Origin: Candidatus Kerfeldbacteria bacterium
Lineage (GTDB): Bacteria > Patescibacteriota > Patescibacteriia > UBA10025 > JAHIVO01
Direction: 5' to 3'
Length of the DNA stretch: 64,000 bases
Assembly (NCBI GenBank): GCA_016214565.1
Contig: JACROE010000002.1
Span: forward strand, 856,007 to 920,006
Shown here: one piece after another, positions 5,380-40,258 of the stretch
How positions within the stretch are numbered: the first letter of the stretch is position 1
Layout of the letters: every line of letters begins with the position of its first letter
Notes under the pieces: generated by a model
Database searches by the model: none
What the model saw: only the letters and a program-made list of their open reading frames with translations
What the model was told of the DNA's origin: nothing
Translations under genes and position numbers: made by a program

Positions 5380-5380
5380 T

Positions 5381-5881: not shown

Positions 5882-6374
5882 TATGAACAATGTAATGAAA
5901 AATCAGTCCGGCTATACGTTGATGGAGCTCTTGGTGTACCTGAGTATTGTCACCGTGAGCGTGCTGGTATTCACCACGTTTGTGGTTAATGTGACGAAAA
6001 ATTCAGCACGCGCAGAAATGAGGCAGGAATTGCAGGAAAATGCTCGTGTAGTGAGCAATCGTCTTATTCAGAATATCCGGCAGGCGGCCAGTGTTGATCA
6101 GGCCAATTCAATCTTTGATGTGCCCAGCGGCACCCTGGCGCTGAACCAAGCGGTAGGAGCAGACATTACATTTCGTCTGGTCAATAATACGGTGGTGTAC
6201 AACGATGGCACCACTGATTATGTCTTGACCAGCAACCGTGTGAAAGTAACTACGATGCAATTTTCTCACACAGTTGATTTGGTAAAAGTCGAATTGACTT
6301 TCGAACAGCCGAATGACTCATCCCAATCATTCACCCTGCACACGGCGGCGCTTGCCCGGCAGTCAATTTATTAA
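5874..6374 (+). CDS. Prepilin-type minor pilin
   Basis: N-terminus QSGYTLMELLVYLSIVTVSVLVF (prepilin motif). Confidence 0.6.
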   Translation: MYSMNNVMKNQSGYTLMELLVYLSIVTVSVLVFTTFVVNVTKNSARAEMRQELQENARVVSNRLIQNIRQAASVDQANSIFDVPSGTLALNQAVGADITFRLVNNTVVYNDGTTDYVLTSNRVKVTTMQFSHTVDLVKVELTFEQPNDSSQSFTLHTAALARQSIY

Positions 6375-8164
6375 TGCGTATGCACGTCATTTCCTCTAAT
6401 CAACGTGGAGCCATCGCTGTCATCTCACTGATGATCATCGCGAGCTTTGCTTTGGCCGTGATCACCACGGTCAGTCTTACTTCGATGAACGTATTTCGGG
6501 GTGCGGACGCAGGTATTGATACGGATCAAACTTTTTATGCGGCAGAGGCGGGGATTAATGAGGGATTGTATGAGCTGAATATCGATCCGTCGCCGCATGA
6601 ATTTTGCCTGGGTTTTGATGCCATTACGGTGAATTGTGACGATGCGGCGATACGCGATAAAGTGCGGGTAACCATTACCGCAAATGGATACAATCGGACC
6701 ATTACTTCAGTCGCACAGGATGCATCCGGCAAAGAACGAACGCTTCATATCGAGGTAACGACCTCGTCAATTTCAGTGCCATTGCAATATGCGGTACATT
6801 CGGGCCGGGGTGGATTCATCCTTGATAATGGCGCGCAAGTAAAGGGACCGATTTATTCTAATGGAAATATTGAGGGCTCAAATACCTCACTTATCACTGG
6901 AGAAGTGCAGGTCGCTAATGAGCCAACGCCTAGCCCGAAACAAGAGAGTCACCCTTTACCGTACTCAATCGCTCAGGATGCGGCACACCTCAGGGTGGCG
7001 CAGCAGATTGTTCCGCCAGTCACTGAACGGCTTACCAAGGTCAGCCTCTACATCCAACGATCATCGAATCAACAACTACCGGAGCTTCCTGGGACGCCGT
7101 ATCAAGTAAAAATTGTCCGTGATATTGCGGGGTCTCCGGATCTCACCCAAGTCGTTGCGCAGCAACAAATCAGTATCCCGAGAGATATTGACTGGGTACC
7201 TATTACATTCACTCCCGCACCATTATTAACCTCAGGACAACCGTATTGGATTGTTGTTGGCGCCACTGCTCAAACTAATGCAACTCGGTACATCATCTGG
7301 GATTACAATGATAATCCTGACACCTATGCTGATGGGGCAGCAAAATATTTTGATAATACGACAGGTACTTGGAATACCATTGCGGGGGATTTCTCCTTTC
7401 AGACATTACTGGGTATTGGTGATACCTTCGTTAAGGACGGGACGGTCAATGGTGATATTACCGCGCACTCGATTATTAATGTTAGCGGGACGGGCTCACG
7501 CACCTCGGGAGCGGGTGTCAATCCGCCCCGTGTCGATTACCCGATAACCGATGCTGACATTAACGACTGGAAATCAGGTGCTCAAGCCGGGGGTGAACTG
7601 AACTGTGGTCCAGGCTCAGCATGTACCAAGGATGCAAATGGGGACGTTACCATTACTGCGAATATGAGCATCGGTCCAAATGTTGTGCATGGGAATTTGA
7701 ATATTAATAGTGGAGTTTCCATAACCGTATTGGGGAATCTGTATGTTGAAAAAAATATAACGTTTAATCCGCCCGCCGGTGCAACCATGATAGTTGGCCC
7801 AGCCAATACACCAGCCGCACGGGTAGTGGTTGCTGAAGGCCAGATCAAAATTAAGAACAACGACATTCTCAGCGGTTCCGGGCATGTGCGGAGCTTTCTC
7901 CTGATGGTTTCGCTTGACGATTATCTGACTTCTGGGGAGATCGCTATCAGCCCTTCGAATAATAGTAGTTCAGTGCTTTTCTTTGCGCCGAAAGGTTTTG
8001 TTGAAATGGCCAATGGCACCTTCCTCAATAGTGCCACTGCGTATATTATCCACCTTGAGAATGCCATAATCGAGTACAATGAGAACCTGTCCGGTTTCAC
8101 CGTGCCTGATCCCACACCAGCCCCGATTGTGATTATCCCCGGACAAGGCTGGGAAGAGCAGTAA
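6374..8164 (+). CDS. Large PilX_N-domain minor pilin / putative pilus tip protein
   Basis: 596 aa. The N-terminus QRGAIAVISLMIIASFALAVITTVSL...FYAAEAGINEGLYEL matches the PilX N-terminal domain, followed by a long beta-rich Gly/Asn/Thr-rich region. Last gene of the pilin run. Confidence 0.5.
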   Translation: MRMHVISSNQRGAIAVISLMIIASFALAVITTVSLTSMNVFRGADAGIDTDQTFYAAEAGINEGLYELNIDPSPHEFCLGFDAITVNCDDAAIRDKVRVTITANGYNRTITSVAQDASGKERTLHIEVTTSSISVPLQYAVHSGRGGFILDNGAQVKGPIYSNGNIEGSNTSLITGEVQVANEPTPSPKQESHPLPYSIAQDAAHLRVAQQIVPPVTERLTKVSLYIQRSSNQQLPELPGTPYQVKIVRDIAGSPDLTQVVAQQQISIPRDIDWVPITFTPAPLLTSGQPYWIVVGATAQTNATRYIIWDYNDNPDTYADGAAKYFDNTTGTWNTIAGDFSFQTLLGIGDTFVKDGTVNGDITAHSIINVSGTGSRTSGAGVNPPRVDYPITDADINDWKSGAQAGGELNCGPGSACTKDANGDVTITANMSIGPNVVHGNLNINSGVSITVLGNLYVEKNITFNPPAGATMIVGPANTPAARVVVAEGQIKIKNNDILSGSGHVRSFLLMVSLDDYLTSGEIAISPSNNSSSVLFFAPKGFVEMANGTFLNSATAYIIHLENAIIEYNENLSGFTVPDPTPAPIVIIPGQGWEEQ

Positions 8165-8276
8165 TCTATTTCCTACATTAGTGTCGTCGTGTGCCTATAC
8201 CTGTGGTGGTACATTTTTTTGAGTTGCAAAAAGCGCCCCTGTTTACAATTTCGTTAGGCAGGAGCAAAATATATAT

Positions 8277-9581
8277 ATGAAAACAGTTGGCATTATTTTT
8301 GGTGCAGCGGTTATAGCAGTCATTGTTATTTGTGTCCAAGCACCGCGGGCAGCTGGGGAGATCGGGGATTGCCCCGCGGGCTACGAATTTCAGCCCTCCA
8401 GCGGGGTAGGCTGTGTCCAGATCAACTGCAACGATGTCGAGAACGGCCACTGGTCATACACCAGCGCCTGTATTTGCGGTTCAGCAGGCAGTATTTATGA
8501 GGATCCAACTGATCCGAACAAAGGGTGTTATTATGACAGGGACTATGCGGCTTGTCCTGGATGCCTCTATGCCTGCGTCCATACTGATGAAGCGTGTCCG
8601 GACGAGACGCCTCCGACTACCAATACAAACGCCAGTTCAAACGTAAATGCGTCCGTAAATACTAACGCCGCCTCAACTAATAGCGCTAGCGGTAATACCA
8701 ATCAGTTGGTAAATCAGAATAGTAATACATCGCTGACTACGGCTGGTGTGGGCAGTACTGCGAGTTGTACCGAGGAATGCAATAAATACCTGAGGGGCAA
8801 AAGGAATGCATCAGTTGTGTCCGCAACTGGTGAACCTCCGGACTGCGCTTGTCAGATCGATGTTCAAGCGGGCGGGGCGGTAACGCAAACTATTAAGATA
8901 GAGGGACCAATAGAAACAACGTATACGTTTGATCCATCGTCCGGCGCGCTGCTATCCCGGGTGACAGTGAATCGCCGGGATGAAATCGAAAAGATCCGCA
9001 AGCGTCTTGGCTATCGTTATACCGAGGCTGAGATTGACGCACTGCTTGCGCCAGAGAAAATTGACGCGTGGTTCCAGAGCCAGACGCAAAACATTAGGAC
9101 AACAACTAATTTGCTCAATCCGCAGTTCTGGTGGCAGCACGTGGTGGCAATACTTGATCACGGGTTTGATGGCAATAGCGCTGATTTTGTAGACACGTAC
9201 CAATTTGGCAGGTGCGGCGATTCAATGCAGTGGCTCGAGCGTGATTTGTCGGGCCAATTACGCTTGGGCGATGACGCAGACGAACCTGGTCAAAAACACG
9301 AAGCGATGCTTTCAATCACTGGAGAAAAATATGGCAACATGTTGAACCACACTTCATTGCTTATTCGGCCCGCCGGCATTACCAATGCGGAGTGGGAGGA
9401 CATCGTCAGAGAACTGAAGCAATTATCTGGCGGTACCGAGGATAATCCTGGCATTCAGCCAGGCGGTTTACAGAATATTGATCCGCGTTTGCTGGATGCA
9501 AAAGTTTTAGACCCATATAAGAAACAAATAACCACCGTGCGTGAATTCATTAAAGGCTGGTCATATATCCGTATTAGTTAG
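8277..9581 (+). CDS. Secreted cysteine-rich protein with low-complexity N/S/T linker (hypothetical)
   Basis: Signal peptide (MKTVGIIFGAAVIAVIVICVQA), about 16 Cys in the first 170 aa, then an N/S/T-rich low-complexity stretch and a globular C-terminal domain. Confidence 0.4.
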   Translation: MKTVGIIFGAAVIAVIVICVQAPRAAGEIGDCPAGYEFQPSSGVGCVQINCNDVENGHWSYTSACICGSAGSIYEDPTDPNKGCYYDRDYAACPGCLYACVHTDEACPDETPPTTNTNASSNVNASVNTNAASTNSASGNTNQLVNQNSNTSLTTAGVGSTASCTEECNKYLRGKRNASVVSATGEPPDCACQIDVQAGGAVTQTIKIEGPIETTYTFDPSSGALLSRVTVNRRDEIEKIRKRLGYRYTEAEIDALLAPEKIDAWFQSQTQNIRTTTNLLNPQFWWQHVVAILDHGFDGNSADFVDTYQFGRCGDSMQWLERDLSGQLRLGDDADEPGQKHEAMLSITGEKYGNMLNHTSLLIRPAGITNAEWEDIVRELKQLSGGTEDNPGIQPGGLQNIDPRLLDAKVLDPYKKQITTVREFIKGWSYIRIS

Positions 9582-9584
9582 TCT

Positions 9585-10079
9585 ATGAAAAAGATTCGTA
9601 TTATCACCATCATTGTGGGTTGTCTGGTCATTGTCCTCGCAGCAGGAGCAATTGTGCTGCGCCATGTCCCGGCGGTGACGTATGCGGTTGAGGATGTGGA
9701 CACTACTGCTCACTGGGGATCGATTTCTGGATCACTGAGTTACCCGAGCGATTTTATCCCAGCCTTAGGCGTTTGCGCTCAAACGAAGAATGCGACCGAA
9801 CAATATTGCACCTACAAAATGTTAGAGGATGATAAATATACTAATGGTGTTGGCTATTCTATTGCGGTTCCGCCGGGTGCGTATACCGTATTCAGCCATG
9901 AAGTGACGGAGTTGAACGCGTTGACTGGTTATCAGGACGGTGATTACCAAGCTTTTTACTCAAAGTTTGTTACCTGCGGCGGTACCAGTGATTGCACCTC
10001 TCACACGCCGGTTGTTGTAACGGTCGAGCGCAACCAAGACCTCGAAAATATTGACCCGATTGATTGGTATAATATTTAA
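9585..10079 (+). CDS. Signal-anchored exported protein (hypothetical)
   Basis: 164 aa with an N-terminal TM/signal anchor and several Cys residues. Separated from the upstream gene by 3 nt. Confidence 0.35.
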   Translation: MKKIRIITIIVGCLVIVLAAGAIVLRHVPAVTYAVEDVDTTAHWGSISGSLSYPSDFIPALGVCAQTKNATEQYCTYKMLEDDKYTNGVGYSIAVPPGAYTVFSHEVTELNALTGYQDGDYQAFYSKFVTCGGTSDCTSHTPVVVTVERNQDLENIDPIDWYNI

Positions 10080-21999: not shown

Positions 22000-22418
22000 G
22001 TAAGTAGTTATTAAGAGAAAAATTGTGGCGAAAAATTTCGAAAATTTAAAAGTCTGGCAAGAAAGCGTTGATTTGGTGAGTTTAATTTATCGTGAAACAA
22101 AAAGATTTCCTCAAGCTGAACAATTTGGGTTAACCAGTCAGATTAGGCGTGCCGTTGTCTCTGTGCCATCGAATATTGCTGAGGGAGCCGGACGGTCATC
22201 CAGGCCAGAATTTATCCGATTTATTAATATTTCCCTAGGTTCTCTCAATGAAGTTGAAAGTTTGATACATGTATCGGTGAAACTTAATTTTATTTCAGAG
22301 AAAACCTTTCAACAATTAAAAGATAAAATTAATCAACTAGGTATTTCATTAGGTGCGTTTAAAAGGTATTTAGCACACCATTCATAAACTACCTTCTACA
22401 ATCTCTTAAACTACTTAC
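22000..22418 (+). mobile_element. IVS-like cassette carrying one four-helix-bundle gene, bounded by roughly 18-bp inverted repeats
   Basis: Left arm GTAAGTAGTTATTAAGAGA (22000-22018) and right arm TCTCTTAAACTACTTAC (22403-22418) are reverse complements (17/19). A second inverted pair GAAGGTAGT (21936-21944) / ACTACCTTC (22388-22396) is present. The flank carries reiterated GAGTAGG motifs. Confidence 0.45.
22025..22387 (+). CDS. Four-helix-bundle protein (23S rRNA intervening-sequence protein family, TIGR02436-like), GTG start
   Basis: 120 aa with hallmark motifs: LKVWQ..., FP..E.FGLTSQIRRA..S...NIAEG..R.S..EF..F..I.LGSL.E. Confidence 0.75.
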   Translation: MAKNFENLKVWQESVDLVSLIYRETKRFPQAEQFGLTSQIRRAVVSVPSNIAEGAGRSSRPEFIRFINISLGSLNEVESLIHVSVKLNFISEKTFQQLKDKINQLGISLGAFKRYLAHHS

Positions 22419-29152: not shown

Positions 29153-30151
29153 ATGGATTCGTTTACAAACATGATAGGCTTTCTAATCCCATTCGGCATG
29201 CTAGCGCTGCTCGCCTGCGCTATTGCTGCCATAATCGAAGGAAAAAATATGACTAAGAAAGGTTCCGTCATTCGTAGTCTGTACTTTTATCTGGCTTCAT
29301 TGGTGACCCTTGCCATTGTGGTTGGATCGGTTATTTTCCTGATTAACCTCGGTTTGAAGGTGTGGGTCTTTACTGATGCGAATACGAATGCTAATTACTA
29401 CGGCCCACCACCGTCATTATCACTTGACTCAGGTACCACGACTGACCCGGCAAAAGTTGAAGCCGGCACACCGACCGTACTTGCCTGCACCAGTGATTGC
29501 ACTCTGACCGCTATCCAAAAAGAGAGTATTGAATCATGGAAAACCAGCTATACCTCATGGCAGGACTCGGTGAAAAACGTCAACGGCCGCAACGCCCGTG
29601 ACGCCGTGGCTGCGCTTTCATTCTTGATCGTTGCTTTACCGTTCTTCATTATTCATTACCGAATTGTTCAACGAGACCATAAGAATGCCGCAGAAGAAGA
29701 AAAAGATAAATTAGTCATCCGCCCTACCTATTTCTACTTCGTATCACTTGGTTCGTTATTGATGATTGTCATCGCCGGTGGTTTCTTGATTAATTTGGTG
29801 CTGAAGACCTGGGTGTTCCCGGCTGCCGGGGAAGCAGACGATCAGGCTTCACGCATATATGCCACCGAACAAACCCTAGCTACTGAAAAATCCGCGGTGG
29901 TCAGTATCACTGAATGCGGCGCTAAATGTGGTTTGGATGCAGAAACGGTAGCGCTGGCAAGCCAGTGGGTGACTGACTATGATAACTGGCAGAAAGAATC
30001 AAATGACAATAATAACGTGCATCGCCAAGCAGCCGGCTCGATTCCCTATATTCTCGTTGGTTTGCCCTTACTCTGGTATCACTGGTCAGCAGTGCGTCGG
30101 GAAGCGAAGGATAAGAAAGTTGTCACGCCAGTTCCTCCAACACAATCATAA
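29153..30151 (+). CDS. Membrane protein with internal tandem duplication (hypothetical), inserted between rplK and rplA
   Basis: 332 aa. Two similar modules, each a 2-TM unit (YFYLASLVTLAIVVGSVIFLINLGLKVWVF / YFYFVSLGSLLMIVIAGGFLINLVLKTWVF) plus a Cys-pair loop (ACTSDCT...SWQDS / ECGAKCG...NWQKES). Confidence 0.5.
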   Translation: MDSFTNMIGFLIPFGMLALLACAIAAIIEGKNMTKKGSVIRSLYFYLASLVTLAIVVGSVIFLINLGLKVWVFTDANTNANYYGPPPSLSLDSGTTTDPAKVEAGTPTVLACTSDCTLTAIQKESIESWKTSYTSWQDSVKNVNGRNARDAVAALSFLIVALPFFIIHYRIVQRDHKNAAEEEKDKLVIRPTYFYFVSLGSLLMIVIAGGFLINLVLKTWVFPAAGEADDQASRIYATEQTLATEKSAVVSITECGAKCGLDAETVALASQWVTDYDNWQKESNDNNNVHRQAAGSIPYILVGLPLLWYHWSAVRREAKDKKVVTPVPPTQS

Positions 30152-30899: not shown

Positions 30900-30921
30900 C
30901 CATTCATCATTCATATCAATT

Positions 30922-31416
30922 ATGAAAAGCCGCGCACAGTATATCTCGTGGGACGAATGTTTTATGCGCATGGCGCATGTCATCGCAGAGCGATCGAAGG
31001 ATCCAAGCACGCAGGCCGGTGCCGTAATTGCGAATGCACAAAATGTCGTGGTGGGCTTGGGTTACAATGGTTGGCCGCGCGGCATTGAGGATGATGCGTT
31101 GCCCTGGGAGCGCAGTGGTGAAAATTTACCAGACACAAAATACGCCTACGTTGTACATGCGGAGGAAAATGCGGTGTATAATGCTAATGCCAATACCGAA
31201 GGCGGAAAAATTTACACCACGTTATTTCCCTGCAATGAGTGCGCTAAGACCATTATTCAGACGGGCATCAAAGAGGTGATCTATGAAAGTGATAAATACC
31301 ATGACGAACCAGTCTGGGTGGCTTCACGTAAATTGTTTGACCTCGCGGGAGTGAAATGCCGCCAGTACCATTCGGATTGGTCGGACGTGAAGATTCCTCA
31401 TAAGCATCAATCATAA
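30922..31416 (+). CDS. dCMP deaminase (ComEB-like cytidine/deoxycytidylate deaminase)
   Basis: Zinc motifs HAEENA and PCNECAK. Confidence 0.8.
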   Translation: MKSRAQYISWDECFMRMAHVIAERSKDPSTQAGAVIANAQNVVVGLGYNGWPRGIEDDALPWERSGENLPDTKYAYVVHAEENAVYNANANTEGGKIYTTLFPCNECAKTIIQTGIKEVIYESDKYHDEPVWVASRKLFDLAGVKCRQYHSDWSDVKIPHKHQS

Positions 31417-31417
31417 T

Positions 31418-31960
31418 ATGATTATTGGATTAGTTGGACCATTAGCCACCGGCAAGGGTACGATTACCGAATACCTCGTGAAACAGCACGGTGCAAAAGC
31501 CGTGAAGTTCTCACAACCCTTGCGCGACATGATTAACCGCTGCTACGTCCACGAAACCCGCGAAGCCATGTCTCAGCTGGCGCAACTGATGCGAGCGAAT
31601 TATGGCAATGATATTTTGGTCAAAACATTGATCAAAGATCTAGAAAAAATGGATGTGCCCATCGCCGTGTTTGATGGTATTCGGTATTTTGACGAATACA
31701 ATGCCCTGCGCGAGCGGAAAGATTTTCGATTATGGGCAGTCGCAACTGACTTAACCGTTCGCCATAGCCGTATCGTCAAGCGGGGAGAGAATGCGGGCGA
31801 AGCTGATCTGACCCTGGATCAATTCAAAGCGCAGCACGAATTGCCCACTGAACTGGCGATTCCGGACATTATGCAGAAGGCCGACGTCACCATCAATAAC
31901 AACGGCTCAATGGAAGAGCTGTACGCCCAGATTGATGCATTGGTTGCCAAGCTGAAATAA
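31418..31960 (+). CDS. P-loop nucleotide kinase, dNMP-kinase-like
   Basis: Walker A GPLATGKGT. Sits between the dCMP deaminase and dut. Family assignment is inference. Confidence 0.45.
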   Translation: MIIGLVGPLATGKGTITEYLVKQHGAKAVKFSQPLRDMINRCYVHETREAMSQLAQLMRANYGNDILVKTLIKDLEKMDVPIAVFDGIRYFDEYNALRERKDFRLWAVATDLTVRHSRIVKRGENAGEADLTLDQFKAQHELPTELAIPDIMQKADVTINNNGSMEELYAQIDALVAKLK

Positions 31961-31961
31961 T

Positions 31962-32384
31962 ATGCAAGCGAAATTCAAACGACTTCATCTGAATGCAAAA
32001 CTGCCGGTCCACGGTCGGCCCGGAGACGCGGGTTTGGATTTGTTTGCGCCTGAGGATGTCATTATTCCACCGCACGAACGAAAGCAGATTCCATTAGGTT
32101 TTGCTATGGAGATACCGAGTGAGTATGTGGCTTTGGTTTGGGATCGCAGCGGTATGGCCGCCAAGATGGGCATTCATTCCATGGCTGGCGTGATTGACAG
32201 CACGTACCGTGGTGAGATAAAGCTGGTGCTGTACAATACTACGAACGAACCATATCAGATTAACGCTGGTGATAAGGTTGCCCAGATGGTGATCCAGCGG
32301 CACGAGACGGTGAGCTTCACGGAAGTGGATGAATTGTCAGAAACGGAGCGCGGGGAGCAGGGGTTTCTGTCGAGTGGGAAGTAG
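31962..32384 (+). CDS. dut: dUTP diphosphatase
   Basis: dUTPase motifs GDAGLDL, RSGMAAKMG, GVIDSTYRGE. Confidence 0.88.
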   Translation: MQAKFKRLHLNAKLPVHGRPGDAGLDLFAPEDVIIPPHERKQIPLGFAMEIPSEYVALVWDRSGMAAKMGIHSMAGVIDSTYRGEIKLVLYNTTNEPYQINAGDKVAQMVIQRHETVSFTEVDELSETERGEQGFLSSGK

Positions 32385-32401
32385 GTAAATGACATATTTT
32401 C

Positions 32402-32710
32402 ATGAGTACTCAAAAACTCTCAGCAGGCGTGGCACATGCCATGCCCCCAGATCTCAAGAAAGCACTGCTTGGTGACACAAAAGCAATGGGTCTGTGGGAA
32501 AGTTTGACGCCCTTGGCGCGCAATGAGTGGATCTGTTGGGTGGAGGCGGTGAAGACTGCCGAGACTCGCCAGGATCACGTCCGACGGACCGTTACCGAGC
32601 TGAAAGAGGGAATGCGTCGTCCCTGCTGCTGGATAGGGTGTATCCACCGTACCGACAAACCGATGAGCCGATCACAAAAATTTATCCTCGGCAAACGGAA
32701 TCGGAAGTAG
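32402..32710 (+). CDS. YdeI/OmpD-associated family protein (DUF1801-like)
   Basis: 102 aa; the C-terminal NEWICWVEAVKTAETR pattern is typical of the family. Confidence 0.5.
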   Translation: MSTQKLSAGVAHAMPPDLKKALLGDTKAMGLWESLTPLARNEWICWVEAVKTAETRQDHVRRTVTELKEGMRRPCCWIGCIHRTDKPMSRSQKFILGKRNRK

Positions 32711-32956
32711 TTTTGACAGAGCCGGCGGCAGAGTCGTAGAATGATAGTACCAACCTTCCCCATCACTGGGGATTTTTATATATGCATTGGTTTTTGACTC
32801 GACCGCCCCTCTTCACCAGCATATTGATTCGGCCTCCACATCACATTTCCCCTCCTTTGCAAGGAGGGGATGAAATACGCTAGCCGATACCATGCCCTTA
32901 CGTGTGGGCGGTTGGTCCACAACTCCACTATGACAATCATCTTCAATACCCACTCA

Positions 32957-33295
32957 ATGAAAAAACGACGTCAGCAATTACGGCGCTCCGCGCCCCGGGC
33001 TGAGTTGCTCCTCTGGCGTTATTTGAAGGGCAAACAGCTTGGTGGTTATAAATTTAGGCGTCAGCATAGTATCGGTGGGTATGTGGTGGATTTCTATTGT
33101 CCAGAATTGCGATTAGTGATTGAGGTGGATGGGCCGTCACATTATGTATCAAAAGAGGCGAGGGAGTATGATCGGCACCGGCAAAAGTACATTGAATCTT
33201 TGCGCATAACCGTGTTGCGTTTTACTAATGCCGATGTGTATGTAAATATGCGAGAAGTGATTGACATGATTTATAGTATTTTACCGAGACCCTGA
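32957..33295 (+). CDS. DUF559 endonuclease-domain protein (Vsr-like fold)
   Basis: Motifs E..LW..L..., FRRQH.IG.Y..DFYC....L.IE.DG..H. The ORF-track start at 32870 would read through a GC hairpin; the ATG at 32957 gives the canonical length. Confidence 0.65.
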   Translation: MKKRRQQLRRSAPRAELLLWRYLKGKQLGGYKFRRQHSIGGYVVDFYCPELRLVIEVDGPSHYVSKEAREYDRHRQKYIESLRITVLRFTNADVYVNMREVIDMIYSILPRP

Positions 33296-33593
33296 AATAA
33301 ATTCAGGGTAAGAAAATTGTCATGCTGAACTCGTTTCAGCATCTCGACGGAGCCTGCCCTGAGCGCAATCGAATGGGCTCGGAATGACAATTATATAATT
33401 ACTCCTCGCAATGACAAAAAGCGGTTGTCATTGCGAGCGAACTGCGCAGCTGAGCAGGAGCGTGGCAATCTTTTTAATTTTCCGAAATCCGTTTCAGCAT
33501 CTTGGGATGACATCACATGTATTACCCTTCGTACTAAAAAAATTCCCCGACTGCGTGTCACAGCCGGGGAGGTCGTTCGTGTCGTAACGTGTG
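33296..33593. repeat. Cluster of palindromic repeat units of the GTCATT(C/G)YGAG...GGAGCGTG...GAATGAC family
   Basis: Perfect 13-bp inverted repeat CTCGCAATGACAA / TTGTCATTGCGAG around 33405-33440. Also GTCATGCTGAAC...GGCTCGGAATGACAA, and CGTTTCAGCATCT repeated at about 33338 and about 33492. Confidence 0.6.
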
Positions 33594-34193
33594 CTAATTG
33601 TAGCGAGGGTCGAATTCAGGTTTGACCTGCAGACCGGCAAATAAGGCGATCACGCCGGAAGTCATATGGTCGACCCTGCCATCGAGATAATTATCCGGGT
33701 CTGATTCACGGAATAATGCGAGGTTTGCCATCGGAATCTCCGGCAGATAATCAAACGTTTCAAAACAAACGTAGGTATTGAGAAATCTCCCGAAGACAAA
33801 AGTGACCGCTTGCCGCCGATTACAGCGACCGCAGCGCCGTTCGTGGGCGTTAATGCATTTTTGTAGGATTTCTCCAGTTTGCCGCAACAGCCGGCGGGGG
33901 TCCTCACGATCGAGTCGCTCGGAATAGTCCACGCAGAAACGCGGGGTGATCATATTGAGCAACGCAATAATACGGTCGGCGTTAACCTCTCTGTCCAAGC
34001 ACGGATTAGTTTTGATCAGCCCATAAAAGTCATCGTCAATGGGCGCTCCATTGGCACGAATCTCTTCAATGATAAGAGTTAGAAAAGAGCGAGCTTTCAC
34101 GGTATATCCTCCATGGATTAATGTTTTTGATATTTGTATTTTGTCTACCGTACCGCATAAGTCGGTTGCTGTCAAGAATTGATCTGTACTCAA
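33594..34193 (-). CDS. Hypothetical protein (CxxC pairs), island gene
   Basis: 199-aa ORF containing CINAHERRCGRCNRRQ. No family recognised. Confidence 0.35.
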   Translation of the reverse strand: MSTDQFLTATDLCGTVDKIQISKTLIHGGYTVKARSFLTLIIEEIRANGAPIDDDFYGLIKTNPCLDREVNADRIIALLNMITPRFCVDYSERLDREDPRRLLRQTGEILQKCINAHERRCGRCNRRQAVTFVFGRFLNTYVCFETFDYLPEIPMANLALFRESDPDNYLDGRVDHMTSGVIALFAGLQVKPEFDPRYN

Positions 34194-34204
34194 TTTTTTT
34201 CTAA

Positions 34205-34248
34205 TTTACGCAAAAAAGAAAGCCCATATGGTGGTTAACCATACGGGC
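34205..34248 (-). terminator. Rho-independent terminator downstream of the 34280-34846 gene
   Basis: GCCCGTATGG-ttaacca-CCATATGGGC followed by TTTCTTTTTTG on the minus strand. Confidence 0.5.
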
Positions 34249-34279
34249 TGTTTGAGGTTGAGAGAAATATTTCATCTGC

Positions 34280-34846
34280 CTAACCTTTGGAGGTTGGTTC
34301 AGGAAAACATATTTCCCGGACCTCGTTCGCCGACATATTGATCCGAAGACCAAATTGCCGTAAAACGCTGTCAACTTCGTGAACCGTTGTCGGGCCGCTG
34401 TTTCTGATTTTACAGATTTCTTTGGCCGTCAGGGTGGCGATCACATTCAGTGGTAGGTACCGCTTGGTTTCTTTGAACTCTTGCAACCGGTGAATGTACT
34501 GTGCTGAAGTTATCATGCTGTTGTAGGCTCGAACAGAAAGCAGTTCGTAGAAAAGTACGGACACACCATCAATTCCGAAGACTCTAATCAGGAATTGTAG
34601 GTGCCGTTGCCGCTGACCGGTAGTCTGATTTCTGGAAATCCGGTGTAGCATAATGCTGGTTTGCTGCGGTGGAGTAGTCGACGGGGATAGTTGGCGGCCG
34701 GACAGGAACTGAGTAATGATATCACTCAACATAGAAAGGTTTTCCAAAGAACCTTTCCGTTGAATGATATGCATAAACAGCTTATGGAGCAGCTTTGCCC
34801 AATCGGATATGAATCCGGTGTCCGGTGTTTCAGATGAATTAATCAC
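34280..34846 (-). CDS. Hypothetical DNA-binding protein with a C-terminal helix-hairpin-helix domain resembling the RNA polymerase alpha C-terminal domain
   Basis: ELLSVRAYNSMITSAQY...ICKIRNSGPTTVHEVDSVLRQFGL parallels the alpha-CTD pattern L.vRs.N.L.....i.dL....e.L..I.N.G.ksL.Ei...L...GL. Confidence 0.4.
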   Translation of the reverse strand: MINSSETPDTGFISDWAKLLHKLFMHIIQRKGSLENLSMLSDIITQFLSGRQLSPSTTPPQQTSIMLHRISRNQTTGQRQRHLQFLIRVFGIDGVSVLFYELLSVRAYNSMITSAQYIHRLQEFKETKRYLPLNVIATLTAKEICKIRNSGPTTVHEVDSVLRQFGLRINMSANEVREICFPEPTSKG

Positions 34847-34924
34847 AATGTTCTCCTATTCGTTATTGTGTAATGTTCTATTTTTTTAACCCGGTATAAT
34901 AACGTATATTGGTCGTACTGTCAA

Positions 34925-34957
34925 GGGTGCCTCCCTTGTTTTTTTGGTTCGGAAATG
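34925..34957 (+). terminator. Terminator-like hairpin between a TATAAT box and the 34971 ORF (candidate attenuator or tiny sRNA)
   Basis: TATAAT at about 34893 precedes CAAGGG-tgcctc-CCTTG followed by TTTTTTT. Confidence 0.35.
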
Positions 34958-34970
34958 AGACGATATATGC

Positions 34971-36131
34971 ATGCGTAAATCAATTATTATTCCAATCGTC
35001 CTCATGGTGGTACTGGTAGTTGTTGGAGCAGTTGTCTGGTACGTCGGTCGGGGTGATCAAGAAATCGTGGACAATTTAAACACCAATAATTCCCCGTCAG
35101 CAGTTACCAATCGTCTTGCCAATACCAATACGGAATCGGCGGGTGGACCGGTCGTGTTTACATATGATATTTTTGACGTCAACCAGGTAAGCCATATTAC
35201 GCCGCTCGGGGAGCTCAACGGCGGATATAATGAAAGCCAGGCGTTTGGTGGGGTCATGATCAATCTGAAGCGCGACAGTCAGGGAAATGTTGCAATGCTG
35301 GATATTATTGCCCCGGCGGATATGAGGCTGATGCAGTACGCACACTATGACATCGAAGGCCAGCCGGAGTGGGCGCTGTACTTCTCCCTCGCACCCGGAG
35401 TAGAGCTGGTCATGCATCACGTACGCCAGGTCAGTGGCAGTATCATCAAGGCTACCAACGCCGTACCCCAAGATAACTCCCGTACCGTGGACATGCCCAT
35501 CCCCCTGGCAATCAGCGCTGGTGAACTGATCGGCAGAACGACTGGCACTTCGCTCGGGCATAATTGGAATATATACGTGTACGATGAAAGCACTGAAAAT
35601 ACCTTTGTCCGTCCCGAGCGGTATCGCAATAATTATTTGGGTGATCGCATGCGCACCGCCTCGTGCGTTTTTGACTATTATCCCGATACAATCCGCCAGC
35701 CGTACCAGGCATTATACGGCTATAGCGCAGCTGGGCAATCAACCACCTGTGGCACCGTGTCGCGAGACGTAACAGGCACCGTGGCGGGACTCTGGTATTT
35801 CAGTGCCAATCCGGCCGATGGTATTGCTGAAGCGAGGGATGGCGACTATGCCACGCCGTTTGCTGCCTATACTGCGTCTGACGGTATGGTTATTCTGCAC
35901 GAGATAGACGGACACCGGTTTGATATTTTCCCGAATAACCCCACGTATAGAAAGCCATCGGACATAACCGATGCGCATTGCTATCAGCTGGTGAACAGTG
36001 CACAAAATTCTTCAGCTGGCTACGCCTATTTTCGGGTGGTGGATTCCATGACCATGCAGCTTGCCTATAAATCAAGCGGATCGTGTCCAGCCAGCTTTCC
36101 CGCTACCGGGGCTGTCACGTATTATCGGTAA
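34971..36131 (+). CDS. Secreted/signal-anchored protein (hypothetical)
   Basis: 386 aa with an N-terminal TM/signal and 4 Cys. No family recognised. Confidence 0.45.
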   Translation: MRKSIIIPIVLMVVLVVVGAVVWYVGRGDQEIVDNLNTNNSPSAVTNRLANTNTESAGGPVVFTYDIFDVNQVSHITPLGELNGGYNESQAFGGVMINLKRDSQGNVAMLDIIAPADMRLMQYAHYDIEGQPEWALYFSLAPGVELVMHHVRQVSGSIIKATNAVPQDNSRTVDMPIPLAISAGELIGRTTGTSLGHNWNIYVYDESTENTFVRPERYRNNYLGDRMRTASCVFDYYPDTIRQPYQALYGYSAAGQSTTCGTVSRDVTGTVAGLWYFSANPADGIAEARDGDYATPFAAYTASDGMVILHEIDGHRFDIFPNNPTYRKPSDITDAHCYQLVNSAQNSSAGYAYFRVVDSMTMQLAYKSSGSCPASFPATGAVTYYR

Positions 36132-36274
36132 TAACCGGTTTGATTTTTAGGCATATGATGATAACTCCATAGCGTAATGGCGGGGTTGTTTTTTTAGAGC
36201 TTGACGGATACGTCGTAATATCCTAGAGTACCATAATATTCTGAATTAACCGTAACTGTTTGTAAGGAGGATAT

Positions 36275-36712
36275 ATGTTCTTTTTAGCAAAAGCTTTTTG
36301 GATAAGCGCAGGCTGGGCAGCGCTTGGTTTGGCCTTCGGTGGGTTTATTGTTCTATTGATAACTTCAATTTTGGAAGATGCGACAAGGCCCCGTCGCCGG
36401 TCAAAGAAATCGAACGATGAGGTATTCGAAAAATACCTTCTTACCATTTCTCTGATTGTGGCAGCACTTGGCATTTGGGTGCTGTGGGTTTCCTATCCGA
36501 TTGTCAACGGGTTACAATTCTGCGTGATGGGGGCTCTAATATCTGGATGTGTGGCGAAATGGATCATAAGGCCGCTCGGTGAGTTTTTTAATGAAAAGCT
36601 CACTTGGTCCGATAATTGGACCACCCTGCTGGTGATCGGCGTTTCTGTACTTCTTGTCGGCATATTGGCCGGCAGTCTCAATGCGCTTTGGTTCAGGGCG
36701 TTTGTCTCGTAA
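36275..36712 (+). CDS. Polytopic membrane protein (hypothetical)
   Basis: 145 aa, 4 TM helices, SD GGAGG upstream. Confidence 0.4.
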   Translation: MFFLAKAFWISAGWAALGLAFGGFIVLLITSILEDATRPRRRSKKSNDEVFEKYLLTISLIVAALGIWVLWVSYPIVNGLQFCVMGALISGCVAKWIIRPLGEFFNEKLTWSDNWTTLLVIGVSVLLVGILAGSLNALWFRAFVS

Positions 36713-36790
36713 GCGAGGCGCTTGATAAGTATAACCGTGTTAGAGGTTTTCTCTGGCACGGTTTTTCATTATCAAAGATAAGTTTATTCA

Positions 36791-36827
36791 AAATAAAAAC
36801 CCCCGCACCAAATGAATGACACGGGGG
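36791..36827 (-). terminator. Rho-independent terminator for the 36854-37723 gene
   Basis: CCCCCG-N16-CGGGGG with an A-run on the + strand (T-run on the minus strand). Confidence 0.5.
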
Positions 36828-36853
36828 ATGTAACATACAATGTAGGCCGATGC

Positions 36854-37723
36854 CTACGCCTGGGCGACTTCGGGAGTCGCTTTTTCGTCGGCGTTTTGAC
36901 GCTCGACTTTCTCGACTGCCTCGATCAGGGACCGAAGCGTGTCGTGGTAACGGCTGTCGATGAGAGTCAGCGGGTCGAGATTGGCCGCCTGGCACTGGGC
37001 CATGAGCTGCTTAATGTCGTATAAATCGACATCGCAGGAATTGAGAGATAGACGTCTCGCAATTGCCTTAGCCTGTTTGTCATGGCCAGCAAGTACGATC
37101 GGGTCGATTAGCGGTCGGGCATAGGTGTCAAACGCCTCTGCGGCAGCTTCGCCAATTGCAAGTGTGAGTACATGACGCATCGTATTGAGGTGTTTATGAT
37201 ACTCCTCAGCGATGTCTGAGACGTCGAATGTTATACCGCCGGGATGATTCCCATGATAGCCGTTGTTTACCGCCTCCTCTGCTTGTTGGAGCAGGAAGCG
37301 AACGTGCCGTATTGACCATAGCAGGTCGAGACTATTAACTATCAGACCCCAGAAACCAGCGGTGACTGTTTGATCGGCTAAACGAGCCAGTTCCTGATCA
37401 TCGATTTCTCGATACTCGCCGCCAATGTGTGGCGATTGTCCGGACACATAGGCGCGCGGGTTGTGGCTGCTGTTGCCGTCACCCTTCGCTGCCAGTGCGA
37501 GCAATTGAATTAATCGTGACTTTTTCCACGAACAATTGCGTACCGCACTGATCGCTTCATTTTTTTGATCAAAGAAAATGTCGAACTCCTTCACCAGCTT
37601 CATTTTCCTGATGATCATGATCACCCAGAATATGAAAAAAAGAACTGCACACGACAAGAAGAGTGCCGGGTATTCGCGCACAAATGACATTAGTGAATCC
37701 CACCATTGAAACATGATTTCCAT
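36854..37723 (-). CDS. Membrane-anchored protein (hypothetical). Start at ATG 37723, or 37714 which has the better SD.
   Basis: N-terminal TM anchor (ALFLSCAVLFFIFWVIMII) followed by an alpha-helical cytoplasmic domain. The longer ORF-track start at 37819 lacks an RBS. Confidence 0.4.
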   Translation of the reverse strand: MEIMFQWWDSLMSFVREYPALFLSCAVLFFIFWVIMIIRKMKLVKEFDIFFDQKNEAISAVRNCSWKKSRLIQLLALAAKGDGNSSHNPRAYVSGQSPHIGGEYREIDDQELARLADQTVTAGFWGLIVNSLDLLWSIRHVRFLLQQAEEAVNNGYHGNHPGGITFDVSDIAEEYHKHLNTMRHVLTLAIGEAAAEAFDTYARPLIDPIVLAGHDKQAKAIARRLSLNSCDVDLYDIKQLMAQCQAANLDPLTLIDSRYHDTLRSLIEAVEKVERQNADEKATPEVAQA

Positions 37724-37849
37724 CCTTTCTGGAATTGTGTTGATTGTATGTAAATTATGTGAATGTACAAGTATATGAAAAGAACAAGACAGTCTAACAT
37801 CTTCATTCATATTTGTCAAGAGGAGTCTGAAGGGCTTTTTACTCCTGCT

Positions 37850-37940
37850 TAGCCTCTAAGATCCTTCGTTATCACTCAGGACGGCTTCGCCGGATTCTTA
37901 CGTCGCCTCGTTTAATTCCGTTCCTCAGAATGACAGTAGG
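37850..37940. repeat. Additional copy or copies of the GTCATTCTGAG/GAATGAC palindromic repeat family
   Basis: The reverse complement reads TGTCATTCTGAGGAACGG...CGTCCTGAGTGATAACGAAGGAT, matching the family core. Confidence 0.5.
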
Positions 37941-38074
37941 GGGGGTAGTATACTTAGGGTCGTATGAAGCAATCCTGCACCACGTTGGGCGCAGGATTTT
38001 TACTATAAATTGACCGTATGCACGAGATGACAGTAGGTGGTATTTTTAGTATACTTAGGGTCGTATGAAGCAAT
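37930..38074 (+). repeat. 44-48-bp direct duplication of the thyA start region
   Basis: ATGACAGTAGG(G/T)GG...TAGTATACTTAGGGTCGTATGAAGCAAT occurs at 37930-37973 and 38027-38074. The second copy carries the real thyA ATG at 38065; the first would give only a 14-codon ORF. Confidence 0.6.
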
Positions 38075-38877
38075 ATTTGGACCTCCTCCAATACGTTTTA
38101 GATAATGGAACTGATAAAGCAGACCGGACCGGCACTGGTACGCGGTCGGTGTTTGGTTACCAGACGCGGTATGATTTGGCTAAGGGGTTCCCGCTGGTGA
38201 CGACCAAGAAAGTCCATTTGAAATCTATCATTTATGAATTGCTCTGGTTTCTGAAGGGGGATACGAATGTGAAATGGCTGAATGAGCACGGCGTGACCAT
38301 CTGGGACGAATGGGCTGATGAAAATGGGGACTTGGGGCCGATTTATGGCAAACAATGGACCGCCTGGACTGCGCCGGATGGCAGTACCATTAACCAGATC
38401 CAGAATGCAGTCGACATGATTCGTACTAATCCCGATTCGCGTCGGATCATTGTATCCGGTTGGAACGTAGGGGATTTACAGACCTTGATTGGCGGCAAGA
38501 AAACTGCGCCACCTCCATGCCATACCATGTTTCAGTTTTATGTGATCAATGGGACCTTGTCATGCCAATTGTACCAGCGCAGTGCGGACGCATTTCTTGG
38601 GGTGCCATTTAATATTGCCTCGTACTCATTACTCACCATGATGATGGCGCAGGTGACGGGCTTGAAGCTGGGGCATTTCGTGCATACGTTTGGTGATTTG
38701 CATATTTATAATAATCATTTCGAACAAGTGAAATTGCAGTTGTCGCGCGAGCCAAAGGCACTGCCTACCATGACCATCAATCCGGAAAAGAAGGATATCT
38801 TTACTTTTGAATTCGAGGACTTTACCCTTGAGGGCTATGACCCGCATCCGGGTATAAAAGCGCCGATTGCGGTGTAG
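38065..38877 (+). CDS. thyA: Thymidylate synthase
   Basis: ThyA motifs: RTGTGT, an active-site Cys in PPCH, and QLYQRSAD. Confidence 0.93.
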
Positions 38878-38904: not shown

Positions 38905-39025
38905 ACCCTTTGTCATTCTGAAGGAGCGTGAGCGACTGAAGAATCTATATGCCGGTAGCCGTATGTCGTAGAGATTCTTCGACTCCACTTCGTTCCGCTC
39001 AGAATGGCAAACCGAAGCTGAGCAT
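38905..39025. repeat. Palindromic repeat unit (GTCATTCTGAAGGAGCGTGAGCGACTGAAGAATC plus inverted partner) between thyA and folA
   Basis: Arm 38910-38947 and inverted arm 38970-39011 form a stem of about 35 bp. Confidence 0.6.
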
Positions 39026-39038
39026 TCAGAAACATATT

Positions 39039-39527
39039 ATGAACAAACCTATCATCAGCGGCGTTGTCGCCATATCAAAAAACCATGTCATTGGTCGTGA
39101 TGGCACGTTGCCCTGGGATATACCCGAGGACTTACAGCATTTCCGCAATCTGACCAAGGGACACGTCATGATCATGGGTAGGAAGACCTACGAATCAATC
39201 GGCCGGCCGCTGCCGAATCGCATCAGCATTATTATTACCCGTAATTCGGAGTACAAAGTAGAAGGATGTTTTGTGGTGCAGTCATTAGACGAAGCCGTGG
39301 CGCTCGCCAAAGAGAAAGAGGAGAATGGCGAGATTTTTGTCATCGGTGGGGGAGAAATATTTCGGCAAGCCATGCCCATCATCGAAAAATTGTATCTGAC
39401 GGTGGTTGATGTGGAAATCGAAGGCCATGCATTTTTCCCAGACTACGCCGAATTCAAAAACGTGGTCAGCGAACGAAAAAGCCATGGTAACGGATTTCAC
39501 TATACCTTTTACGAATTAACGCGCTAA
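39039..39527 (+). CDS. folA: Dihydrofolate reductase
   Basis: DHFR signature VIGRDGTLPWDIPEDLQHFRNLT...VIGGGEIF. The ATG at 39039 follows the repeat. Confidence 0.85.
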   Translation: MNKPIISGVVAISKNHVIGRDGTLPWDIPEDLQHFRNLTKGHVMIMGRKTYESIGRPLPNRISIIITRNSEYKVEGCFVVQSLDEAVALAKEKEENGEIFVIGGGEIFRQAMPIIEKLYLTVVDVEIEGHAFFPDYAEFKNVVSERKSHGNGFHYTFYELTR

Positions 39528-39529
39528 CT

Positions 39530-40258
39530 ATGGCACGACGCGGTATCATGGTAGTGATCGACGGCATCGACGGCTCGGGCAAAGGTACCTTTGTCCAGGT
39601 GTTGGCGGATTGGGCAAAGCGCAAACATTATAAAATATTTGATGTGGTTGCCTATGAAAAGAAAAATTATACGTTACCACAGCCCAGTGAATTAAAGGGT
39701 TACCAAGTACTGATTACCGCTGAACCAACGCATTCGCTGATTGGCAAAGCTATCCGCGAGGAAATCGCCCGGTCAAATGAACGGATGTACACGGCTCGTG
39801 CCACTGCAGAAGCGTACGCCCTTGATCGATATATATTATTACAACGAGTGATTATCCCCGCACTTGCCGCGGGTAAATATATTTTCCAGGAGCGTTCATT
39901 GACCACGTCACTGGCCTACCAGCCGATTCAGGCAGAGCCATTGTCGGTGAAAGATATCATCGGTTTGGCGGGCAATCAGCTGGCGCTCAAGCACCGACCT
40001 GATTTATTGTGTATACTGAAGACAGACGTGGCAGCCGTGATGCAGCGCCTCAGAACACGCAAGAAAAAGGATCGAGCGATATTTGAGCGAAAGTCGTTTC
40101 TCGAGAAGGCGCAGCGCCGGTTTACTGCCTCGTGGTTTCGGGAGATGTATCAGAAGCGGGGAGCACAGGTAGTGACGCTGGACACCACCGGAGGATTGAT
40201 TGAAACCAAAAAGAAGATGCAGGAAGTTTGGGAGGGGTATTTGAAGAAAGCATTATGA
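39530..40258 (+). CDS. tmk: Thymidylate (dTMP) kinase-like
   Basis: P-loop DGIDGSGKGT, a DRY lid, and ERSLTTSLAYQ. Function fits the neighbouring thyA-folA genes. Confidence 0.6.
   Translation: MARRGIMVVIDGIDGSGKGTFVQVLADWAKRKHYKIFDVVAYEKKNYTLPQPSELKGYQVLITAEPTHSLIGKAIREEIARSNERMYTARATAEAYALDRYILLQRVIIPALAAGKYIFQERSLTTSLAYQPIQAEPLSVKDIIGLAGNQLALKHRPDLLCILKTDVAAVMQRLRTRKKKDRAIFERKSFLEKAQRRFTASWFREMYQKRGAQVVTLDTTGGLIETKKKMQEVWEGYLKKAL

Follow-up and report, generated by a model that had tools for sequence, protein, structure and literature searches.

A variable gene segment with palindromic hairpin elements in the thymidylate-synthesis neighbourhood of a Candidatus Kerfeldbacteria genome

In a 64-kb stretch of a Candidatus Kerfeldbacteria genome (contig JACROE010000002.1; the whole stretch is hereafter termed the window), genes for the synthesis of deoxythymidine monophosphate (dTMP) lie on both sides of five genes, here called A to E, that gave no match above threshold in Pfam, PHROG, PADLOC or NCBIfam. 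Palindromic repeats stand at both borders of these genes and the start of the adjoining thymidylate synthase gene, thyA, is duplicated. Was this segment inserted as one mobile island, as proposed in an earlier note made from the sequence alone, or was it filled gene by gene? The analysis reported here describes a real but fairly ordinary variable region, with no demonstrable mobile, phage or defence cassette. With a probability of roughly 0.55, the segment is a recombination-prone variable ("hyperplastic") slot in a conserved dTMP neighbourhood, filled piecemeal by unrelated lineage-specific genes and not by one mobile cassette. The five genes are as follows.

Gene A: 33594-34100, minus strand; 168 aa from a GTG at 34100 behind GGAGG; the open reading frame (ORF) reaches 34193 (199 aa)
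Gene B: 34280-34846, minus strand; 188 aa (164 aa in the NCBI call), an ORFan
Gene C: 34971-36131, plus strand; 386 aa, anchored in the membrane at its N-terminus, with a LytM/M23-fold domain and, at the C-terminus, a lipocalin-like beta-barrel
Gene D: 36275-36712, plus strand, in the same direction as C; 145 aa, a predicted protein with four transmembrane (TM) segments
Gene E: 36854-37714, minus strand; 286 aa, a helical domain behind a single TM helix at the N-terminus, an ORFan

Age, linkage and composition of the five genes

The genes of the segment were of heterogeneous age, with about 40 relatives of protein C across the candidate phyla radiation (CPR), six distant relatives of A and none of B and E; since the five genes differ in this way in phyletic depth, they do not make up a conserved cassette. 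The genomic contexts of homologs gave the same picture. None of A, B, D, E or the dTMP genes lay near the C homologs at six loci (L002, L003, L004, L008, L009 and L010, which include the relatives with 62% and 55% identity), and the A homolog on the CPR contig L007, located next to ATP synthase genes and the one locus recovered with the 3-sequence subset used to search for A-family contexts, likewise had no dTMP gene and no further island gene nearby. Conservation of the gene neighbourhood was therefore absent from the six C contexts and the one A context, B being without homologs. Similar small interruptions of conserved gene strings occur elsewhere in the window, as shown by the orders pheS-23S_rRNA_IVP-pheT and L11-DUF5671-L1, which is in keeping with a slot that acquired its genes one at a time.

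The composition of the segment was native by all general measures. The GC contents of genes A to E (0.47-0.52), their GC contents at third codon positions (GC3; 0.51-0.56) and their codon bias (Karlin B) all fell inside the range of the window, and the tetranucleotide distance of the 4779-bp segment was 0.1486 as compared with 0.1472 ± 0.018 for equally long pieces of the window (119 pieces, 58 of them more deviant). No mobility gene (integrase, transposase or recombinase) was found between 32.4 and 38.1 kb using Pfam, NCBIfam and PHROG, and neither att-type direct repeats nor matched inverted ends enclose the island. The tRNAs of the window are located solely at 62.2-63.0 kb and there is no tRNA or tmRNA site at the island. 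Searches of 50,697 phage records (blastn of the island, tblastn of B and E) returned no match and PHROGs gave nothing significant, leaving the non-coding hairpins as the only part of the locus in common with phages. In PADLOC nothing was found for A, B, C and E, and the best match was that of D to PDC-M02B with 13.7 bits (E 0.005).

The arrangement of promoter-like and terminator-like sites also argues for several independent units. Terminator-like hairpins were present 3' of A (33544-33570), of B (34249-34221, between B and A), of D (36733-36763) and of E (36827-36800), with promoter-like sites upstream of B (34924-34896) and E (37819-37791), indicating at least three, probably four, transcription units: B followed by A on the minus strand with the hairpin between them, C-D on the plus strand and E on the minus strand.

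The earlier note had read the segment as a laterally acquired cassette, possibly phage-derived or a defence module, and had suggested looking for a deviation in GC and codon usage over the island. By these measures the island was indistinguishable from the rest of the window, and this native composition, together with the lack of mobility genes, tRNA and enclosing direct repeats and with the absence of linkage between the genes elsewhere, speaks against such a cassette. A phage origin finds no phage DNA or protein similarity for any gene to build on, and a defence function no PADLOC match. As a "mobile island" the locus fails, so it carries little weight for defence or phage biology.

Layout of the locus, its repeats and the thyA start

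How far does the interruption extend, and what surrounds it? Pfam confirmed that dTMP-synthesis genes lie on both sides (dCMP deaminase, dut, ThyA, DHFR and Tmk), with a kinase-like gene among them that stays below cutoffs, and the five ORFs that the earlier note had placed between them were all present, three of them (A, B and E) on the minus strand. Its claim that an island splits the dTMP set holds as to the interruption but not as to its extent of 4.7 kb. Because the OmdA and DUF559 genes are non-pathway genes as well, the interruption already starts after dut and occupies all 5.7 kb between the dut stop codon and the first codon of thyA (32385-38064), with seven genes in it. The flanking genes are listed below.

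dCMP deaminase: 30907-31416, plus strand; Pfam PF00383, 3.9e-22
Deoxynucleoside monophosphate (dNMP)-kinase-like P-loop protein: 31418-31960, plus strand; AAA_18 and DNMK matches under the Pfam cutoff
dUTPase (dut): 31962-32384, plus strand; PF00692, 2.8e-34
OmdA/YdeI-domain protein: 32402-32710, plus strand; PF13376, 8e-17; outside the dTMP pathway
DUF559, Vsr-like endonuclease-fold protein: 32870-33295, plus strand; PF04480, 1.3e-32; outside the dTMP pathway
ThyA: 38065-38877, plus strand; PF00303, 1.9e-122
DHFR (folA): 39039-39527, plus strand; PF00186, 3.5e-55
Tmk: 39530-40258, plus strand; PF02223, 1.8e-23
GatB: immediately 3' of Tmk, from the annotation of Logan contig L001

Upstream of the dCMP deaminase gene, the gene string by Pfam consists of NusG, L11, a DUF5671 membrane protein and L1, and a terminator-like hairpin lies 3' of the OmdA gene (32757-32772). 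At the protein level, gene C is identical to HZC01_04320, gene E to HZC01_04330 and gene B to HZC01_04315. No genes other than A, B and E run on the minus strand within 1-41.8 kb, and nowhere else in the window do as many consecutive genes lack a Pfam match as in the run from A to E. Of 40 genes scanned in the rest of the window, away from the dTMP-island locus, 10 were Pfam-less; a run of five is unusual, yet not extreme.

Several side observations concern these surroundings. The kinase-like protein matched NCBIfam PRK08356 under cutoff (9e-17) and, weakly, the N-terminal portion of NF041025, a model for anti-phage dCTP deaminase (E 1.7e-5; 23.9 bits, far under the cutoff of 400), and the protein is probably a housekeeping one. 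The gene between pheS and pheT (23S_rRNA_IVP, 22025-22387, 120 aa), with a GC content of 0.355 and GC3 of 0.264 as compared with about 0.48 and about 0.52 in the window, was the one clearly compositionally foreign gene seen. The 332-aa membrane protein with repeated DUF5671 domains (29153-30151) splits the ribosomal genes L11 and L1. The peak of tetranucleotide deviation (0.19-0.20, mean 0.147) was found at 4500-7500 in a type IV pilus-like cluster comprising T2SSE, T2SSF, a prepilin-type protein and three Pfam-less genes at 6374-10079.

A search of genome contigs with Tmk recovered two loci only, the best with 45% identity. At one of them, L005, dcd and dnmk stand directly beside a 529-aa tandem ThyX, which is followed by tmk, with no island and with the order and orientation of dcd and dnmk differing; at the other, L006, tmk is followed by gatB. 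The L005 arrangement implies that the dTMP neighbourhood can be contiguous. The contiguity sought in related genomes was thus found, albeit in a distant one with thyX at this position, and the type of thymidylate synthase in this neighbourhood varies between ThyX and ThyA with DHFR. The locus hence illustrates non-orthologous variation of this kind together with gene accretion in a conserved dTMP neighbourhood. The dCMP deaminase and P-loop kinase-like genes of the window (30907-31960) are adjacent in L005 too, and this pairing is conserved. The 529-aa protein of L005 (8398-9987) has two Thy1 stretches, and a MazE/PIN toxin-antitoxin pair comes after tmk. The metagenome-assembled genome (MAG) containing L005 is labelled Nanoarchaeota, a label that looks doubtful given the 45% Tmk identity to a Kerfeldbacteria protein; the dnmk-dcd genes at this locus are of bacterial type.

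Do the repeats define the segment? The sequence GTCATTCTGAG, allowing up to one mismatch, gave four matches in the window against 0.98 expected, a number reached in 1 of 100 shuffles. The degenerate half-site TGTCATKSBGA, together with its complement, occurred six times in the 64 kb (at 33318-33438, 37925 and 38911), always in one of three spacers: between DUF559 and A, between E and thyA, and between thyA and folA. A palindromic repeat family at both island borders and in the thyA-folA spacer, as the earlier note had it, was therefore confirmed by six half-sites there and none elsewhere in the window. The half-sites build four imperfect palindromes of about 85-120 nt that have common termini only (TTGTCATTCTGAG...CTCAGAATGACAA), their interiors being unlike; these termini were found in all four window elements and in L007. 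The elements are the following.

Composite of hairpin modules H2 and H1: 33286-33345; H2 is AGACCCTGAAATAAATTCAGGGT and overlaps the DUF559 stop codon, H1 is TGTCATGCTGAACTCGTTTCAGCATC
Palindromic element 1: 33312-33395; inverted termini TTGTCATGCTGA / TCGGAATGACAA
Palindromic element 2: 33400-33520; contains a perfect hairpin with a 13-bp stem, CTCGCAATGACAA...TTGTCATTGCGAG
Palindromic element 3: 37855-37940; left terminus degenerate, right terminus CCTCAGAATGACA
Palindromic element 4: 38906-39014; between thyA and folA

In folding calculations, elements 1 and 2 reached -29 and -39.4 kcal/mol (z -2.2 and -2.6) and element 4 reached -46.5 kcal/mol (z -4.9), while element 3 folded no better than shuffles (z +1.4). 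The two island borders carry different palindrome sub-types with a common terminal motif of about 11-13 nt only. Copies of the H2 and H1 modules were present on the CPR contig L007 (376-700), next to a small GIY-YIG gene, where a 24-nt stretch was 100% and a 29-nt stretch 93-97% identical to the left-border modules; the right half of element 3 was in turn similar to the L007 sequence GATTCTCACGTCGTC...CCTCAGAATGACA. The 26-nt H1 module (short form TGTCATGCTGAAC..GTTTCAGCATC) occurred 17 times in 12 IMG/VR stretches (L031-L042) from at least nine metagenomes, with up to five copies per phage contig, and was often arrayed with H2 and related modules. Several of these IMG/VR loci are genuine tailed-phage genomes in which the modules lie between genes for TerL, connector, baseplate J and sheath; the H1-bearing loci had a GC content of 34-54% and none of them encoded an island protein. 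H1 looks like a terminator because a T-run typically comes after it in phages.

Given that the modules recur on another CPR contig and in phages, the repeats do not define the island. The border repeats belong to a widespread, promiscuous family of modular intergenic hairpins, REP/BIME- or MITE-like (repetitive extragenic palindromic elements, bacterial interspersed mosaic elements and miniature inverted-repeat transposable elements). No transposase-like gene was seen among the scanned window genes, and no Rfam family or riboswitch was found in the spacers even at E <= 1. In the literature the repeat sequences matched only primers and vector sequences, and a search on palindromic repeats of CPR returned only TIGR-Tas and unrelated topics. 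The occurrence of identical 24-29-nt hairpins in CPR chromosomes and in tailed phages of very different GC content points to a promiscuous small mobile or regulatory element, one that also breaks assemblies (Logan unitigs break at the H1 module) and yields spurious ORF extensions. For example, the longest folA ORF (192 aa, as called in L001) begins inside element 4, so that 30 codons at its 5' end (window positions 38949-39038) stem from the repeat, whereas the domain of DHFR itself starts from the ATG at 39039; the palindromes create other spurious N-terminal extensions and small ORFs, such as 33391-33625.

Closer examination of the spacer between E and thyA bore out the duplicated thyA start.

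Duplication at the thyA start, about 100 bp: 37930-38074, plus strand; copy 1 at 37930-37973, copy 2 at 38027-38074

It consists of an exact core of 28 nt (37946-37973 and 38047-38074), which extends to 44-48 nt when one indel is allowed, and both copies carry a promoter-like ATGACA...TATACT, a ribosome-binding site and ATGAAGCAAT. The functional promoter and start of thyA are those of copy 2, with the promoter-like site at 38027-38055. Copy 1 starts a 14-codon ORF (37964-38008, MKQSCTTLGAGFLL) that overlaps a terminator-like hairpin and T-run at 37974-38003, some 60 nt ahead of the functional start; this ORF could be a leader or attenuator, or merely a scar. The duplication is present in the independent Logan contig L028 and is therefore not a MAG artefact. 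As the duplicated segment begins exactly at the terminus of element 3, repeat and rearrangement are physically linked. This sole long direct repeat (44-48 nt) sits entirely on the thyA side of the island.

Products of the five genes

What do the genes encode? The earlier note had stated that the proteins fit no family, which does not hold for C, now assigned to a family and a fold, and holds only in part for A, with six relatives, and for B, with its alpha-CTD-like tail. Homologs of protein C, about 40 in number and with 37-62% identity, came from Patescibacteria and Parcubacteria metagenomes, and a Pfam domain was present in none of them. Protein C has the LytM beta-barrel fold, and in BFVD it matched the generic M23 fold only. 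It had no PF01551 match at E <= 1, and a profile of the C family found no M23 chain among the PDB sequences, returning spurious NHL-repeat matches only. At the expected position of the HxH motif the family alignment shows (H/K/N/A)-N-W-N, in which the His is not conserved, and a low-confidence hhalign alignment placed G-V-M-I-N of the C family opposite H-Y-G-V-D of LytM (the HxxxD site). The absence of these HxxxD and HxH zinc ligands suggests that C is most likely a non-catalytic LytM factor. Four conserved cysteines in the family fit an extracytoplasmic location.

By analogy with EnvC, NlpD and SpoIIQ, protein C may act as a peptidoglycan-associated binding or regulatory factor. It resembles these proteins in membrane anchoring, extracytoplasmic placement and absence of zinc ligands, and differs from them in lacking sequence-level membership (no PF01551 match), in carrying, besides an extra lipocalin-like barrel, invariant motifs not found in them (PLGELNGGY, NWNIY and SCP..FP...YYR), and in being without coiled coil or LysM partner domains and without a conserved amidase, FtsEX or SpoIIIAH-like neighbour. 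The C family would therefore be a candidate cell-wall or host-contact factor in a group whose envelope biology is poorly known, and about 40 or more membrane-anchored CPR proteins without Pfam coverage gain a confident fold assignment as a zinc-ligand-free LytM domain with a lipocalin-like barrel. At L003 (10639-11748) the C-family gene P0003 has a convergent neighbouring paralog with 24% identity over 300 aa, and so the family can be locally duplicated.

Protein B matched only itself among 5.8 billion proteins. Its residues ~103-167 form a C-terminal domain of two helix-hairpin-helix (HhH) motifs, (HhH)2, like the C-terminal domain of the RNA polymerase alpha subunit (alpha-CTD). Against PF03118 it scored 15.8-17.3 bits (E 0.004-0.012) under a cutoff of 23.8 bits, the second HhH alone matching, and against the NCBIfam model of the RpoA C-terminus E was 0.019. 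A local alignment with the alpha-CTD of B. subtilis gave a score of 66 as compared with 25.3 ± 4.3 for shuffles, with 0 of 2000 shuffles reaching it, and spans both HhH motifs in order, LSVRxYN... and K(I/V)RNxG....E(V/I)...L...GL of B aligning to the two. Differences lie in the score under the Pfam cutoff, in a 14-residue insertion that separates the motifs, and in what precedes the domain, where about 100 aa of unrelated ORFan sequence stand instead of the alpha N-terminal domain. The alpha-CTD-like HhH tail proposed earlier thus holds at the "works like" level of the alignment, although not at the Pfam threshold, and through this domain protein B may contact DNA or the transcription machinery.

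B was also considered as a decayed thyX, a tempting candidate as L005 has ThyX in the slot and the top PDB sequence match of B was ThyX of H. pylori (3ah5; phmmer, E 0.31). It was rejected: with filters off, neither a hidden Markov model of ThyX built on 11 sequences nor the ThyX protein of L005 had a match at this locus in the six-frame translation of the window, Pfam Thy1 is absent, and the aligned "motif" (LSVRxYN) is the first HhH of the alpha-CTD-like domain.

The remaining proteins gave less. Protein A is a helical bundle in its predicted structure (pLDDT, the predicted local distance difference test, 78.9) with no meaningful structural neighbour, and an exhaustive HMMER search recovered six distant representatives among 1.84 billion; the CxxC by which the earlier note had characterized it is present but not conserved among these relatives. 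Protein D had no relative in IMG/VR or at any fetched locus and no family match in Pfam, PHROG, PADLOC or NCBIfam. Protein E matched only itself among 5.8 billion proteins and had no PDB, phage or family match. The sizes given earlier were right for some proteins and need revision for others: A probably has 168 and not 199 aa, B 164-188 aa, and E 286 aa and not 290-321.

Alternative readings and known systems

How could such a slot have arisen? In the piecemeal reading, envelope genes (C, D and E) and small cytoplasmic genes (A and B) would have accreted separately in the slot. Promiscuous hairpin elements colonise the intergenic spacers of CPR chromosomes and phage genomes, the slot borders among them. 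By analogy with REP/BIME elements or the PeSL motifs of T4-like phages, short dispersed repeats and duplicated promoter and terminator motifs may then serve as recombination points for the insertion or swap of genes, and the duplication of about 100 bp at the thyA promoter and start would be the scar of one such event. Several points weigh against this reading. Analogy alone suggests the recombination role of the hairpins, and with the closest relative at 45% Tmk identity neither the timing of insertion nor its piecemeal nature is directly shown. All repeat copies of the window cluster at the locus, which also fits a single event bringing repeats and genes. By dicodon score, each of the five genes lies under the housekeeping mean of 0.152 ± 0.086, B (-0.22, the lowest in the region) and D (-0.08) being outliers; such low scores could reflect a foreign origin or, for B, weak coding. 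Genes A, C and E clearly favour their own reading frame (score of gene E 0.02). Finally, the homology search for D was confined to family libraries, IMG/VR and the fetched loci.

An acquisition of the whole segment as one cassette, a defence or host-interaction module from a phage, a plasmid or another CPR cell with the palindromes as its ends and ameliorated since, would account for the sole strand-switched genes in 42 kb, the longest Pfam-less run of the window, the confinement of the window repeats to its borders, the presence of the left-border hairpins in phage genomes, the dicodon scores under the housekeeping mean and the absence of the block from the distant relative. It is nevertheless improbable, as the composition is fully native, there are no mobility genes or tRNA, the element types at the two borders differ, a third repeat site (thyA-folA) is found beyond the block, no phage, PHROG or PADLOC match came up for any of the genes, the genes never co-occur in the other contexts retrieved, C is a vertically widespread CPR gene and the genes form several independent transcription units. 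Some of the same evidence, namely the native composition and the well-formed promoter- and terminator-like sites, would suit genes that are old, vertical and lineage-specific, in a genome where the dTMP genes never formed one operon, where hairpins later colonised long spacers and where the duplication was an unrelated slip. CPR gene order is weakly conserved, as the order and orientation of dcd and dnmk in L005 exemplify, and the hairpins occur in many unrelated contexts. This account has a certain, if limited, likelihood, since all repeats of the window stand exactly in the three spacers by which the non-pathway genes and thyA are bounded, and the terminus of element 3 is precisely where the thyA duplication begins.

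Those two features can be read differently again if thyA-folA is the newcomer, instead of or besides the five genes, an ancestral thyX having been displaced by ThyA and DHFR flanked by elements 3 and 4, with the duplication as a junction scar. Sporadic replacement between thyA and thyX is well established, L005 has its 529-aa tandem ThyX exactly between dnmk and tmk, elements 3 and 4 bracket thyA, and the duplication lies at the 5' junction of thyA. Such a displacement, which is compatible with the other readings, is nonetheless doubtful: thyA and folA are native in GC and codon usage, no thyX remnant was found in six frames of the whole window with the ThyX profile and the L005 ThyX (filters off), and L005 is very distant. 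That the island does not truly lie beside DUF559 and dut, the MAG having been mis-joined at the multi-copy hairpin at 33318-33345, is highly improbable. The left junction is indeed supported by the MAG alone, as the independent Logan contigs break within the hairpin at 33318-33343: L030 (dnmk-dut-OmdA-DUF559) ends at about 33343, as placed by offset from the DUF559 gene, and L028, from the assembly of another run, covers window positions 33318-38313 at 100% identity. These contigs overlap by about 26 nt, however, as do neighbouring nodes of an assembly graph, the MAG contig spans 1.116 Mb, and the right junction (E-thyA-folA-tmk-gatB) is confirmed at 100% identity by L028 and L001.

Among known systems, classical genomic islands and prophage remnants resemble the segment in having an accessory block that splits a housekeeping cluster with a local strand switch, and differ from it in the features that the segment is without: compositional deviation, an integrase, a tRNA target, att-type repeats and phage genes. 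For the repeats, the comparison set consists of the REP/BIME elements of enterobacteria, the Rickettsia palindromic elements and MITE-like palindromes. The elements of the window are similar to these in being imperfect palindromes of 30-165 nt with conserved termini (TTGTCATTCTGAG...CTCAGAATGACAA), in their position between genes or overlapping gene 3' ends, and in forming mosaics of different hairpin modules with many copies across genomes. In contrast to species-restricted REPs, the same 26-nt module is found more broadly, in genomes of 34-54% GC that include phages, no RAYT/TnpA-type gene was seen among the scanned window genes, and the neighbours are small nucleases, DUF559 in the window and GIY-YIG in L007.

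The reading of the segment as a slot filled piecemeal has its counterpart in the hyperplastic regions of T4-like phages, where PeSL promoter-terminator stem-loop motifs border blocks of ORFans that interrupt core gene strings and mediate gene shuffling (PMC2839356; PMC4122927). Here the host is a cellular CPR chromosome, several palindrome types take the place of one composite motif, and there is no close genome pair showing an actual swap at the motifs. Alike are the short conserved promoter and stem-loop sequences at the borders of an ORFan block, the duplicated motif, in this case a copy of the thyA promoter with a hairpin and T-run behind it, and the presence of the hairpin modules in phage genomes. 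Speculatively, H1, H2 (AGACCCTGAAATAAATTCAGGGT) and the longer TGTCATTCTGAG palindromes might represent a so far undescribed family of mobile modular hairpins with a very broad host range, one that moves between phages and CPR chromosomes and provides portable terminator/promoter junctions where ORFan genes are inserted or exchanged. If so, the slot would be a recruitment site for new CPR envelope genes such as the one encoding the degenerate LytM protein C, and the dut-thyA interval, with its duplicated thyA promoter, leader ORF and terminator, would be the cellular counterpart of the phage hyperplastic regions.

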